This document shows positions 9,088 to 13,270 of a stretch of DNA of 64,000 bases, in pieces. The DNA lies in NCBI GenBank assembly GCA_037481835.1, contig JBBFKW010000005.1, positions 96,001-160,000 on the forward strand, given 5' to 3'. This DNA is from Desulfosoma sp. (lineage in GTDB: Bacteria; Desulfobacterota; Syntrophobacteria; Syntrophobacterales; DSM-9756). The notes beneath the pieces are model-generated. The model was not told the DNA's origin. It worked only from the letters and a program-made list of their open reading frames with translations, and did not search any database. Within the stretch, counting starts at the first letter, position 1. Each line of letters starts with the position of its first letter. A program made the translations under genes and the position numbers.

Positions 9088-9888
9088 CTAGAGCCGTTCC
9101 AAGTGTTCCGGAGGATCGGCCCCCGGCGGTCGGACCTTCCGTCGGACTTCCTCTCGCAGCTTTTCCATCTCCACGCCCGTGAGCTCCCGCTGCGGCGCCT
9201 CCAGGACCAGCGGGGCCTCCATGTGCGCGTAGACGGTCGTCCCGGTGAGGATGCCTCGTGTCTTGGTGACGATGTGTTGGAGCATCCATCCCGAATCGCC
9301 GATGAGCACGGCGAAGCAAAACGACCCGTAGACCGTCTCCAAAATCCGAGCCCGCGCGACGGGCCCATCGGTCAGGATCGTCACGGTCCCTTCCTTGAGT
9401 TTCTCGTCCTCGGGATCCCGGGCGGCGACCACCGTCAGGCCGTCGATGCGGATTTCCCTTTTGACTAGAGGGCGTCGCACCCGCGAGGCCACATAATCCA
9501 AAACCACCCGGTGATTGGCTTCATCCACGGGTGAGAACCCGTGATAGTTCAAGTCGCCGTGGGAATGAATCCACCCGTTGACGACCCATCCCGGCTGGAG
9601 TTCTTCGTGAAAGGCCAAAAGATCCCGACTGTCCAGGCTTGTGTATTGCTGCAAATTGGCGGCATTCCGCGGAAGCCCGATATCCCTGATGACCTCGGGA
9701 CGGTCTTCTTCCCCTAAAGTGAGCCCGTACCATTCGTAGCTTTCCCCGTAAAGCTCGCGCACCAGGGAGGAAACGGCCAAGGCCTTGCTGCGCGCATAGC
9801 CCGTCATGGTCACCCGATCGGGAAATCGGCCCAAGGGAATTTCCAGCAGGGACGGCCTTTTCAAATCGTTAAGTCTTTTCAGCTTCAT
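9088..9888 (-). CDS. JAB/MPN+ (JAMM) metalloprotease-like protein
   Basis: EWYGLTLG ... GWIHSHGDLNYHGFSPVD fits E-xn-HxH-x8-S-x2-D; AAGGAG RBS. Confidence 0.75.
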   Translation of the reverse strand: MKLKRLNDLKRPSLLEIPLGRFPDRVTMTGYARSKALAVSSLVRELYGESYEWYGLTLGEEDRPEVIRDIGLPRNAANLQQYTSLDSRDLLAFHEELQPGWVVNGWIHSHGDLNYHGFSPVDEANHRVVLDYVASRVRRPLVKREIRIDGLTVVAARDPEDEKLKEGTVTILTDGPVARARILETVYGSFCFAVLIGDSGWMLQHIVTKTRGILTGTTVYAHMEAPLVLEAPQRELTGVEMEKLREEVRRKVRPPGADPPEHLERL

Positions 9889-9904
9889 GGCCGCGAGGGC
9901 TCCT

Positions 9905-11008
9905 TTAGGCCAAAGCCGCCTTGACCTGCATGGCGTTCACTTCGTAGTCGCCCGTATGGGTTCCGGGCAGAGAAAACATGGGCTCCAGAAGCACCCGATG
10001 GAGGATGCTCGTCAGTCCCCGCGCACCCACCCCTTCTTGTTCCGCCCGGCGTGCCACCTCCAAGACGGCCTCATCGGTAAAAATCAGCCGAATGCCCCAC
10101 GCTTCGAAGTCCTTGATGAAGGCTTGCAGCGGGCTGTCCTCGCTCTTGGTGAGAATGTCCCGAAGGTTGGCCGTGGTGAGCGCATTGTAGACCACGCGGA
10201 CGGGCAGCCGCGCCATGAGTTGCCGTTCCATGCCGTAGCGCACCAAATCGTCCGGCAGGAGGTGATCCCGCCACAGTCCCTTGATCCCGAGGCGCTCCAT
10301 GCGCTTTTGAACGATCTCTTCCAGCCCTTCAAAAGCCCCTCCGGCGATAAACAGGACGTGACGGGTAGACAGGGTGAGGCGGTCCTTTCCGAATTCGATG
10401 GTGTTTTCCATCCCCTCCAGCATCTTGAGGAGCCCTTTTTGGACGCCTTTTCCCGAAACATCTTTGGTCAGGGTCTTTTCCGAGGCGATCTTGTCGATCT
10501 CGTCAAGATAGACCATGCCCGTTTGCGCCGTCAGCGCATGCCCGCCCGCCGAAACCAGAAGGTCCACCAGAATGTCCGAAGTGCTCTGTCCCACGTAGCC
10601 TGTTTCGCTGAACTTGGTGAGGTCTTCCACGATGAAAGGGACCCCGACTAACCGCGACGCCACCTCGCACGTATAGGTTTTTCCGCAGCCCGTCGGCCCC
10701 ACGATGAGGATGTTGGCCTTGGGGGTCTTGACCCGCTGTAAGGCCTTTGCCACATCGCCGCCGCTGTGCGAGGCCGCTTCCTGTAAGGCCGCCCCCAAAC
10801 GGCGGTAGTGGTAGGCAATGGCGGTGGCCAGGATCTTTTTCCCCTTTTCCTGACCAATGACGTACCGGTCCATTTCGGCCTTGAGCTGCGACGGAGTCTT
10901 GTCGAAGCCGGCGATGTGTTCCACGGTCTGGGCGGTCTTTCGGTCCCGCACTCCGTCCATTTTTTCTTGGATCCTCAACCGGCTTTCAGGAGCCATGGGC
11001 TCAGCCAT
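9905..11008 (-). CDS. ClpX/HslU-family AAA+ ATPase lacking N-terminal Zn-binding domain and IGF loop
   Basis: YVIGQE, KANILIVGPTGCGKT, GYVG, VYLDEIDK, DVSGKGVQKGLLKMLEG, GARGL; GGAGG RBS before ATG 11008. Confidence 0.85.
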   Translation of the reverse strand: MAEPMAPESRLRIQEKMDGVRDRKTAQTVEHIAGFDKTPSQLKAEMDRYVIGQEKGKKILATAIAYHYRRLGAALQEAASHSGGDVAKALQRVKTPKANILIVGPTGCGKTYTCEVASRLVGVPFIVEDLTKFSETGYVGQSTSDILVDLLVSAGGHALTAQTGMVYLDEIDKIASEKTLTKDVSGKGVQKGLLKMLEGMENTIEFGKDRLTLSTRHVLFIAGGAFEGLEEIVQKRMERLGIKGLWRDHLLPDDLVRYGMERQLMARLPVRVVYNALTTANLRDILTKSEDSPLQAFIKDFEAWGIRLIFTDEAVLEVARRAEQEGVGARGLTSILHRVLLEPMFSLPGTHTGDYEVNAMQVKAALA

Positions 11009-11447
11009 AGGACGCCTCCAGGGCCCGTTTCTTGGCGGCGTAAAACCGATAGAGAAAGGCATAGGAATAGCGCGAGAGCAGCCGCGGAGCGATATTGGGG
11101 TTGAGGGCGTAAAGCGGCCGGCACAGCAGAAGGTCTTCCGGGGTTTCGGCCCACGCACGGTAAGGGCCTTCAATGCGGGTGGCGATGGTCTCGACAATTG
11201 CATAGGATTCGGGAGGAACGAGCGCAAACAGGGGGACCGGAACGGGCGCCTTCCGAAGCGCTCCCTGGGCAAGAGCACGAGCCGCCGTCTCTGTCTCCGG
11301 CTCCTCGTCCAGCCGCCTCAGGAAATCTTTTCCGTCCACGCCGAAAGCCGTGAGGACGGACGCCACGCGGGTAAACGCGTCGGGTTGAAAAACCAGGGGC
11401 GTCTTGCCCTGTTCCCTGTGCTTTCGAATGGCATCCCTGATGGCCAT
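11001..11447 (-). CDS. Hypothetical protein (148 aa) in putative Ubl cluster
   Basis: Stop overlaps start of ClpX-like gene; same strand; protein-like composition; start uncertain. Confidence 0.65.
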   Translation of the reverse strand: MAIRDAIRKHREQGKTPLVFQPDAFTRVASVLTAFGVDGKDFLRRLDEEPETETAARALAQGALRKAPVPVPLFALVPPESYAIVETIATRIEGPYRAWAETPEDLLLCRPLYALNPNIAPRLLSRYSYAFLYRFYAAKKRALEASYG

Positions 11448-11600
11448 GTCTTTTCCCCGGATGATTCCGTTATGCCGGCAGACGGCTTCCCATGCGGGCA
11501 GGGGCGACCCCACGACACCCTTTTAGTCGAAGCGCCTCCAGCCTATTCGCTCCGCCCCAAACCCTGTTTTCCGCCGGGTCGCTCCAGCCCCGTCTCGCAC

Positions 11601-12812
11601 TCACGAAAAGGCGTTGGTCACGGGAACTTCTCCGGAAAGGCAGCGCGGGTCGTCCGACGGGATCTTCAAGTCGTCGAAGTGAATATCTCCTTGGAAGCCG
11701 GAGAAGTGATCCAGTCGATGATAGCCGTTTCTTTTTCGGGGATCGTACCCGTGATACAAGGCGTTCAGGCCGTCTTCCAGCGACCGGATGATGTGAGCCG
11801 CCGTAAAGGTTCGCCCTGCCGGTGAGTGCCCGAGACAGATTCTCTGCCAGGGCTGATGGCGCGGCAAAAGAGGGTGCTTGTAGCTGTCCACGACCACGGG
11901 CCAGAGGTCCTGGGAAGTCACGGCCACGCGGCAATCGGGGAAAAGGTACAGCCGGTTGTAGTAATCCCTCAGAGCATATCGGCCGCTCCGCTTGTAGATC
12001 ACGAGCTCTCCGTCGGAAGCCCTTGCGAAAAAACCGAAGCCGTCCACTTCCAGAGCCCCTCGCGTGAGCACAAAGAGCATGAAGCCCAAGGCGGGCGCGG
12101 GCCAATCCCAATACGGGCGAAGCTTTTCCCGAAAATTTTCCTGTTCCTTCCCCAAAGCTTCACGCCACGCCATCTCTAAGGAAGCCTCCAGGTCCCTTTG
12201 CAGGGTCTCGGCTCCAACGATCCGCCTCCCGGCGTCGTCGCACCCTTCACGCCCAAAGGGGCCCGGAAGCTTGGGCACTCCACGTTCGACGTCTTGGCGC
12301 CGGATATCCACAGCCCACCGATGAAAGCGTTCCGGCACTCCGACCTTTTTTGAAAGCCACAAGGCCAGGGCTTGGGGTCTGTTTCCGGCCGATTTCACCC
12401 ACGCGGGCAGACGCACAAACCGGGGAAGCACCTGGAAAAGCGCGGTTTCCAGGTGGACCGTGTTTCCAAGGACGATCCGAGCTTTTCCCTTGCCGAAAAG
12501 ATCCCGGCAGACCTTTTTTCGAATCCCTGAGGCAAGCTGCGGGAAAAGCACGGGGGCGTGACGGACGAGCCCCTCCCATGCGATGGTTTCGATGTAAGGA
12601 ACCCCTTCATGGAAAACGACCTTCGGCCCGTGGACGCCCCTTTGAAAGACTCCGGCGAAAGCTCCGCCTTCGCCCGCCTTTCGAAGCTCCCGAGCGGTCT
12701 CGGGATCCATCGGGCATGGAAGATAGACGCTCCCGCCCTTGAAAAGGACTCTGTGGTCTTGGAGATCGTCAAAAAATCTTGAGAAATGGTTTTTCTTCAC
12801 CCGGCTTTTCAT
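11601..12812 (-). CDS. Hypothetical protein with putative C-terminal E2 (Ub-conjugating)-like domain
   Basis: YKHPLLPRHQPWQRICLG followed by helix IIRSLEDGLNALYHGY; ATGA overlap with upstream gene. Confidence 0.55.
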   Translation of the reverse strand: MKSRVKKNHFSRFFDDLQDHRVLFKGGSVYLPCPMDPETARELRKAGEGGAFAGVFQRGVHGPKVVFHEGVPYIETIAWEGLVRHAPVLFPQLASGIRKKVCRDLFGKGKARIVLGNTVHLETALFQVLPRFVRLPAWVKSAGNRPQALALWLSKKVGVPERFHRWAVDIRRQDVERGVPKLPGPFGREGCDDAGRRIVGAETLQRDLEASLEMAWREALGKEQENFREKLRPYWDWPAPALGFMLFVLTRGALEVDGFGFFARASDGELVIYKRSGRYALRDYYNRLYLFPDCRVAVTSQDLWPVVVDSYKHPLLPRHQPWQRICLGHSPAGRTFTAAHIIRSLEDGLNALYHGYDPRKRNGYHRLDHFSGFQGDIHFDDLKIPSDDPRCLSGEVPVTNAFS

Positions 12813-13207
12813 CGCCCTTTCTCGCAAACATGAACCGGGGCGGGAAAGCCTCCCTCCTGGGGCCTTAGAGCCCTTACGGCCACGTAATAATACTTTTCAC
12901 CCTCATCGGTTTCTTCCACCCGGGCCCGTTCCAGGGGATCTCCCTCAATGGGCCGTCCTGCACACAAAAGGACCCCTCTTTCCATCTGCAGGAGAATGTC
13001 CTCGAGAATTTCCCGCTCTTCAATGGAGAGGTCCTGTCTCGCGAGAATCACGTCTACCAGCTCTTGGAGCGTCTTGCCTTCATAAGTTCCCGGCTCGAAG
13101 ACCTCCAGAAGTCCCTCGGCCGCCTGCCCCGGAAGGATTTCCACCACGAGAGGCACCGGCAATTTCCGCCGTTCCTTTTCTTTTTCCTCAAGAACCCGAA
13201 TCGTCAT
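12809..13207 (-). CDS. Putative ubiquitin-like (beta-grasp) protein precursor with internal GG
   Basis: 132 aa ending YVAVRALRPQEGG-FPAPVHVCEKGR; strand/helix pattern resembles ThiS/MoaD/Ubl. Confidence 0.5.
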   Translation of the reverse strand: MTIRVLEEKEKERRKLPVPLVVEILPGQAAEGLLEVFEPGTYEGKTLQELVDVILARQDLSIEEREILEDILLQMERGVLLCAGRPIEGDPLERARVEETDEGEKYYYVAVRALRPQEGGFPAPVHVCEKGR

Positions 13208-13241
13208 CTTAGGCCCCGATTGTTTCGCGGTTTTTCTGTTA

Positions 13242-13270
13242 TTTTGACATGGAATTTTAAGAAGTCAAAA
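13242..13270. promoter_or_regulatory. Inverted repeat TTTTGAC-N15-GTCAAAA overlapping a putative promoter of the Ubl cluster
   Basis: AT-rich IR 35 nt upstream of ATG 13207; minus strand reads TTGACT-N16-CAAAAT. Confidence 0.45.

Follow-up and report, generated by a model that had tools for sequence, protein, structure and literature searches.

The 64,000-nucleotide stretch of the Desulfosoma sp. genome analyzed here (the window; assembly GCA_037481835.1, contig JBBFKW010000005.1, positions 96,001 to 160,000) carries on its minus strand a run of five genes which resembles a bacterial cassette for conjugation of a ubiquitin-like protein (Ubl). The five genes encode a small protein with a diglycine (GG) motif near its end, a protein with features of a ubiquitin-conjugating enzyme (E2-like), a small protein named x, a ClpX-like AAA+ ATPase and a JAMM/JAB metallopeptidase (table 1). 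An earlier sequence-only reading of this DNA had described five co-oriented genes with two overlapping junctions and two gaps, and the minus-strand open reading frames (ORFs) together with a check of the junctions agree with this layout. The Ubl and E2-like genes overlap by ATGA at 12809-12812, and the genes of x and the ATPase overlap by 8 nucleotides (nt) at 11001-11008, with the TGA of the x gene inside ATGGCTGA. The gap between the E2-like gene and x is 153 nt, and the one between the ATPase and JAB genes is 16 nt and contains AGGAG.

Table 1. Genes and candidate promoter of the cassette (positions within the window; aa, amino acids)
Feature	Position	Strand	Basis
Ubl-like modifier precursor, 132 aa	12809..13207	-	ORF; ends ...RPQEGG + 12-aa tail FPAPVHVCEKGR
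E2-like conjugating-enzyme candidate, 403 aa	11601..12812	-	ORF; HP...C motif
Small protein x, 148 aa	11001..11447	-	ORF; matches no known family
ClpX-like AAA+ unfoldase, 367 aa	9905..11008	-	ORF; NCBIfam/Pfam matches
JAMM/JAB metallopeptidase, 266 aa	9088..9888	-	ORF; JAMM motif
Sigma-70-like promoter candidate, TTGACT-16-CAAAAT with TG	13241..13268	-	34 nt upstream of Ubl start

Two sets of loci were used in order to follow the cassette beyond the window. The first consists of the best 80 of 101 confirmed genome loci, from a scan of species genomes through the 403-aa protein. The second consists of 80 of 169 confirmed metagenome loci, an independent set found through a distant sub-branch. 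Gene orders are written below with U for Ubl, 2 for E2-like, x, C for ClpX-like, J for JAB and 1 for the activating enzyme (E1), and individual loci are cited by their L numbers.

The E2-like protein has 176 relatives of similar length in a set of 5.8 billion proteins, all of them unnamed or annotated as "hypothetical", and a search of 1.84 billion proteins gives 208 representatives at E≤1e-3. In tblastn searches with the window proteins, the order of the five genes is unchanged on every contig of sufficient length. All six cassette genes, including an E1 gene, are present in 49 of the 80 genome loci, where the order U-2-x-C-J-1 is found 35 times and 1-U-2-x-C-J 13 times. Where a metagenome locus extends 3.5 kb or more beyond the E2-like gene on the downstream side, the ATPase is present in 30 of 34 cases and the JAB gene in all 34. 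The metagenome loci with wide flanks contain an E1 in 13 of 14 cases and all six genes in 11. In a very distant locus of a branch with low guanine-plus-cytosine content (low GC), L100, the order is U-2-J-1-C, the last gene encoding a 535-aa ClpX-like ATPase. Chance adjacency of the genes is ruled out by these counts, and the co-occurrence that the sequence-only reading had made a test of its proposal is found in most of the 80 genome and 80 metagenome loci. The cassette is carried by sulfate reducers, Methylomirabilota, Binatia and others, as well as by the distant low-GC branch.

The 132-aa protein is, by its C-terminal signature, a probable ubiquitin-like precursor. The putative mature form comprises residues 1-120 with QEGG at its end, followed by the 12-aa tail, and an alignment of 64 sequences shows no variation at Q117, E118, G119 and G120. 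Orthologous ORFs were found in 69 cases, one of which (L022) was dropped due to an internal stop. QEGG is present in 67 of the 68 intact orthologs, in agreement with the expected conservation of the GG, and the only exception (L051) reads as frameshifted. Eight orthologs stop exactly after the GG, and in 59 it is followed by a tail of 1-151 aa that is not conserved. For instance, Ubl ORFs of the distant low-GC branch end in ..QDQEGG-LKLYM and ..NHEGG-LEL. An invariant QEGG followed by variable, unconserved tails is the signature of a ubiquitin-like precursor in need of trimming.

Some Ubl genes of other loci differ in structure. In several assemblies, the QEGG is immediately followed, in frame, by a fused GNAT N-acetyltransferase domain with a length of about 150 aa, the whole being a single gene of 270-272 aa (L020:6114-6932, L021:6114-6932 and L027:6120-6938; protein clusters P0260-P0263). 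This is a natural Ubl-fusion precursor and recalls ubiquitin fusion genes. Cluster P0012, with 10 member sequences from one contig, joins Ubl and E2-like parts within one protein of 525 aa (80% identical to the window's Ubl and 50% to its E2-like protein), which could be either a real fusion or a frameshift at an ATGA-type junction. The L051 gene (L051:6523-6903), in which QEGG is lost through an apparent frameshift (..RAIRAPRRW..), and the L022 gene with the internal stop (L022:6540-6965) may reflect assembly errors or decay.

The 403-aa protein contains the motif HP-x10-IC-LG (H313 P314 ... I325 C326 L327 G328). The motif had been recognized in the sequence-only reading with a spacer of 11 residues, which is corrected here to 10. 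Among 61 E2-like proteins, which include 35 divergent relatives from a profile search, mostly of 430-590 aa, the sole invariant residues are F291, Y311, H313, P314 and C326. A second cysteine, C294, is not invariant. The predicted conservation of the cysteine is thus borne out, and the arrangement is that of E2/UBC proteins, that is, a conserved HP with a conserved Cys about 10 residues further on. In contrast to the HPN motif of E2 enzymes, the third residue in this cassette is L or F.

The AlphaFold model of this protein (mean predicted local distance difference test 81.6, predicted template modelling score 0.71) begins with a helical part, and an alpha/beta domain at its C-terminal end carries H313-P314 and C326. 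In the latter domain, a helix (239-251) is followed by strands (253-299), an extended loop bearing the HP and Cys326, and a helix (338-354). A Foldseek search of the model against PDB and BFVD gave nothing at E≤1e-3. Among the 50 fold matches listed, 41 are E2, UEV or RWD domains according to their titles, and 2 further ones are the bacterial Cap2 and Bub complexes, so that the structural support for a UBC fold is weak, though one-sided. In the language-model Atlas, the protein lies nearest to clusters of Prok-E2_D (0.93, 206 shared features). When residues 235-403 were modelled in complex with residues 1-120 of the Ubl, ipSAE values of 0.01 and 0.00 were obtained, which is evidence neither way.

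Profile searches of PDB with the E2-like alignment, and with an enlarged version of it, returned nothing relevant. The window protein matches no Pfam family at E≤1, none of 32 E2-like members matches the Pfam E2 models (UQ_con, Prok-E2_A to E) at E≤10, and none of 30 distant relatives has a Pfam domain. Within the phylum, Prok-E2_D is found in 0 of 301 genomes and Prok-E2_B in 1 of 301, which is another genome (G279). As no curated E2 model is matched, the protein is named E2-like and is placed in no Pfam Prok-E2 family.

The JAMM protease gene predicted from the window is supported by a motif which is invariant in 63 sequences. E52, H108, S109, H110, S119 and D122 do not vary, and E52, H108, H110, S119 and D122 correspond to the JAMM/MPN+ pattern E ... 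HxH-x7-S-xx-D. The call is based on this motif. The window protein, whose C-terminal domain of about 130 aa is conserved, scores only 13.3 bits (E 0.078) against Pfam Prok-JAB, where the cut-off is 25 bits. The same model is matched at E≤1 by 32 of the 63 orthologs, with 2.5e-4 as the best value, and JAB orthologs of the distant branch, in the same position of the cassette, reach 35.0 and 37.5 bits against that cut-off. A weak match of the JAB profile in PDB is the Rpn11-like protein of Caldiarchaeum (6fju), over the HxH..S..D block (E 0.64). The 266-aa protein is the candidate for trimming the tail of the Ubl and for deconjugation. In the low-GC branch (L098, L099, L100 and L102, GC 0.32-0.39), JAB proteins have 561-954 aa with long unannotated C-terminal extensions.

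The ATPase is the sole cassette protein of the window that is clearly recognized by curated models (Pfam, NCBIfam, PADLOC). It matches AAA_2, AAA and ClpB_D2-small in Pfam, and the NCBIfam ClpX model NF003745 with E 2.4e-79 and 267 bits, against a curated cut-off of 359. A canonical ClpX of 665 bits is encoded elsewhere in the genome. With canonical ClpX (NF003745/TIGR00382), the cassette ATPase shares the AAA+ core, Walker A and B, the GYVG pore-1 loop, a sensor/Arg-finger block and the C-terminal small domain, and it retains the GARGL block. In contrast, the zinc-binding N-domain of ClpX is absent, a deletion of 7 aa removes the RKH loop and one of 13 aa the IGF/LGF loop, with which ClpX docks on ClpP, as the alignment with the genome's own ClpX indicates. 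Given the score below the cut-off and the loss of these three elements, the protein is ClpX-like and not ClpX. With pore loop and ATPase motifs kept and the ClpP-docking loop gone, the protein should be capable of threading polypeptides without docking to ClpP. The genome contains a third ClpX-family gene (G000:C4:168865-169962), in an open frame of 659 aa, with 310 bits on TIGR00382, below the cut-off; it is neither the canonical ClpX nor the cassette ATPase.

Protein x has a conserved block, NPY..(F/W)A.(S/T)PE(E/D), and its orthologs hold the same position of the cassette in most loci. There are variants from which x and the ATPase are both missing, namely, minimal E1-Ubl-E2-JAB cassettes at L060 and L074 among the genome loci and at L122, L131 and L173 among the metagenome loci. 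Because of this joint absence and the 8-nt overlap of the genes, x is likely a partner or adaptor of the ATPase. The existence of the minimal cassettes indicates that x and the ATPase form an optional addition to a core that resembles Bil, the bacterial ISG15-like system.

In the case of E1, the sequence-only reading found none beside the five genes and concluded that it must be elsewhere or dispensable. No ThiF/E1 match is found within the window. The genome-wide search that this called for gave three ThiF matches, on contigs C2, C4 and C6, of which the one on C4 is the ortholog of the cassette E1. It is a protein of 471 aa (G000, contig C4, about 1090-2505) located between genes of an ammonium transporter and a 3-hydroxyacyl-CoA dehydrogenase. 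The N-terminal half of the protein is Rossmann-like, the C-terminal part is a ThiF domain (Pfam PF00899, 112.8 bits; cut-off 28.1), and NLNRQ and Cys415, which follows a variable insert, are invariant in 45 E1 sequences. Its PDB matches include Uba4 (3e-9), UBA5 (1.5e-8), Uba1, ThiF, MoeB and Cap2.

Homologs of the C4 gene adjoin the cassette in 60 of the 80 genome loci (33-40% identity, E 1e-80 to 1e-101). Conversely, the cassette E1 of L036 has its best match in the window's genome at the C4 gene, with 6.8e-92 as opposed to 1e-7 for the housekeeping ThiF, so the two are reciprocal best matches. Only L004, L005, L039 and L074 show no E1 despite more than 4 kb on both sides. In all three congeners, an intact E1 ortholog (62-63% identity, no stops) is placed on a contig other than that of the E2-like gene. 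Judged from these sequences, E1 is neither absent nor dispensable and is relocated to another locus in this genus. When E1 is absent from such an operon, the rest of the genome should be searched before the enzyme is called dispensable.

Taken together, the five genes are considered to be the core of a six-gene Bil-type Ubl cassette, in which a module of x and the ClpX-like ATPase has been inserted and from which E1 has moved in this genus; a probability of roughly 0.6 is assigned to this reading. From the tagging system with its own unfoldase, as proposed in the sequence-only reading, the conserved set of GG protein, E2-like protein, x, ATPase and JAMM peptidase is retained, and the missing E1 is not. 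Several results count against this interpretation. No Pfam, NCBIfam or PADLOC model matches the Ubl, the E2-like protein or x. A PDB profile search with the Ubl alignment found no Ubl, and a comparison of the Ubl profile with 29 ThiS/MoaD proteins of relatives (hhalign) gave a probability of 0.5%, that is, no similarity. In the JAMM motif, the spacer between HxH and S has 8 residues as opposed to the canonical 7. E1 is unlinked to the cassette in this genome, so that co-regulation with the five genes is no more than possible, and the public sequencing runs listed comprise 8 of DNA and none of RNA. Finally, the cassette encodes no protease, E3 or substrate, and the target of the unfoldase is thus a guess.

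From the gene content and the conserved motifs, we infer a pathway with the following biochemical steps, targets and ATPase substrate. The JAMM peptidase would cut the 12-residue tail from the 132-aa precursor and expose Gly120. E1 would adenylate the GG end and then hold the tag as a thioester, presumably at the invariant Cys415. The tag would be handed to Cys326 of the E2-like protein and from there to lysines of the targets. A hexamer of the ClpX-like protein, unable to dock ClpP, would together with x engage the tagged proteins and unfold or extract them. The JAMM peptidase would also strip and recycle the tag. The proposed logic is that of Rpn11 with the Rpt ring, or of Cdc48. As to what the pathway serves, it is tentatively suggested that in several bacterial phyla, proteins conjugated by E1 and E2 to a diglycine tag are handed to a ClpX-like unfoldase that acts without ClpP and alongside a JAMM deconjugase and a small adaptor, in the service of cellular proteostasis or regulation rather than of phage defence.

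A role in defence with the same biochemistry, as in Bil, in which phage proteins would be tagged and then dismantled by the ClpX-like motor and x, is more doubtful. The closest characterized relatives, BilABCD and type II CBASS with Cap2/Cap3, are defence systems, as described in the Bil preprint (bioRxiv 10.1101/2023.09.26.559546). Also in favour, the spread of the cassette is patchy. The E2-like gene is carried by 47 of the 122 species genomes of the host's class, by 27 of the 67 high-quality ones and by 13 of 31 genera, and in one genus only 6 of 39 species have it. The window's own flanks (MFS, MalQ, PGM) recur only at the closest relative, L004, and the cassette travels as a unit among unrelated neighbourhoods. 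On the other hand, the gene is mostly single-copy in the carrier genomes of the class, and several genera have it in every sampled species (3/3, 3/3, 3/3 and 5/5; another has it in 15/18).

The neighbourhood of the cassette likewise does not favour defence. Of 302 flank ORFs, 100 were compared with Pfam, 9 rows having been removed by hand beforehand, and 61 of the 100 had matches, to metabolic, transport and regulatory genes. Integrase, transposase, phage and restriction or defence domains are absent from these 61 matched ORFs. In addition, no PADLOC 2.0.0 model fits the Ubl, the E2-like protein or the JAB protein, and E1 matches only generic CBASS E1-E2 models, with its ThiF part.

The ATPase might alternatively service the machinery itself, by unfolding the precursor for trimming, by freeing E1-E2-Ubl complexes or by cleaning auto-modified enzymes, which is considered unlikely. 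In its favour, the minimal cassettes (1-U-2-J in L122, L131 and L173) suggest that tagging probably works without x and the ATPase, and the genes of ATPase and JAB are tightly coupled, as with the 16-nt gap here and with gaps or overlaps of 0-3 nt in many loci. No result, however, separates this possibility from the unfolding of tagged proteins, and the retained GYVG loop would fit any threading substrate.

Trios of E1, GG protein and JAMM peptidase occur in sulfur-carrier pathways such as CysO/Mec+ and QbsE/QbsD, and the best PDB match of E1 is Uba4, a sulfur-relay E1, but a GG protein acting without any tagging as a ThiS/MoaD/QbsE-like sulfur or acyl carrier, which E1 would activate and the JAMM peptidase would trim in order to make a cofactor or small molecule, is highly improbable. 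The profile of the GG protein is unlike ThiS/MoaD, and the genome encodes ThiS/MoaD proteins and a ThiF separately. Beyond ThiF, E1 contains neither a rhodanese nor any additional Pfam domain. Such pathways have no use for an AAA+ unfoldase or an E2-like Cys protein, and no biosynthetic genes are conserved beside the cassette.

Apart from the six genes, other elements were observed at or near the cassette. The promoter candidate is 1 site in 5.2 kb, where 0.9 are expected from shuffles; since the count is at about the shuffle level, the support for it is positional only and not significant alone. Another small protein, conserved and about 93-108 aa long, is located beside the cassette in 28 of the 80 genome loci (e.g., L036:11841-12119, L045:4534-4857 and L054:4920-5210), either adjacent to E1 or separating the E2-like gene from x. 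A search with the L036 protein as query did not detect it in the window's genome. A protein of 400 aa with a metallo-beta-lactamase fold and TPR is found near the cassette in 25 of the 80 genome loci, in either orientation (e.g., L007:4679-5899). Its ortholog in the window's genome (G000:C3:71990-73144, 43% identical) is on a contig other than that of the cassette. This protein is possibly one more component, loosely linked to the others. In a few loci, genes of Amidoligase_2 (L058:11168-12232 and L076:2162-3124) and of a class-II glutamine amidotransferase, GATase_4 (L047:7202-7945 and L076:1413-2153), lie no more than 3.5 kb away from the cassette.

Likened by gene order and description, the closest known system is BilABCD, types I and II. 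According to its description, BilABCD has the order Ubl-E2-JAB-E1, BilA ends in a conserved C-terminal Gly with a short unconserved tail to be trimmed by the JAMM peptidase BilC, and the E1 combines an inactive and an active adenylation half with a Cys-bearing insert (bioRxiv 10.1101/2023.09.26.559546). The cassette shares the GG-type C-terminus with an unconserved tail (QEGG in nearly all orthologs, tails of 0-151 aa). The plan of E1 is also shared, here with a Rossmann-like half, a ThiF domain and C415 after a variable insert. The gene order of Bil is exact in the minimal variants and is kept in relatives with x and the ATPase inserted; in the window's genome, E1 is off the contig. The differences from Bil are two additional genes, x and the ClpX-like ATPase, which in most loci separate E2 from JAB, an E2-like protein that measures about 400 aa, begins with a large helical part and carries the motif HP-x10-IC, and neighbours which are housekeeping genes and not defence islands. 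Among the PADLOC models, none connects the cassette proteins with Bil.

The known bacterial operons with E1, E2, Ubl and JAMM are Bil, Bub and CBASS Cap2/Cap3, none of which is coupled to an unfolding ATPase in the searchable papers. For instance, Bub operons differ from the cassette in having no ATPase component in the accessible text, where the word "ATPase" appears 0 times and "AAA" is confined to the title of a reference and the name of a strain (PMC11601596). A search of full-text literature, with subscription journals and supplements outside its reach, found no AAA+ or ClpX-like ATPase joined to a bacterial Ubl/E1/E2/JAB operon. The ATPase-linked cassette is widely conserved and apparently undescribed. 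In pupylation (Pup-PafA/Dop-Mpa/ARC), bacteria also combine a small-protein tag with a dedicated AAA+ unfoldase. Pup, however, is a disordered protein that a glutamine-synthetase-like ligase attaches via a C-terminal Glu, the system has neither E1 nor E2 nor JAMM peptidase, and Mpa docks on the proteasome.

As with Rpn11 and its AAA+ ring, with Cdc48 and with the ubiquitin operon of Caldiarchaeum, the cassette brings together a diglycine tag, the chemistry of E1 and E2, a JAMM peptidase and an AAA+ unfoldase. The cassette ATPase, in contrast, belongs to the ClpX/HslU branch and not to that of PAN/Rpt/Cdc48, neither a proteolytic chamber nor a RING E3 is found among the cassette genes, and the analysis gives no sign that the coupling is of common descent. 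The occurrence of the combination in these bacteria makes it testable whether tag-directed unfolding exists in bacteria and how it could operate without a docked protease, and the six proteins are a compact set for reconstitution. A diglycine tag linked to an AAA+ motor and a JAMM peptidase is what defines the ubiquitin-proteasome and Cdc48 systems of eukaryotes. If the proposed tag-and-unfold pathway is true, it would be a bacterial counterpart of ubiquitin-Cdc48 or the proteasome lid, built on a different branch of AAA+ proteins.

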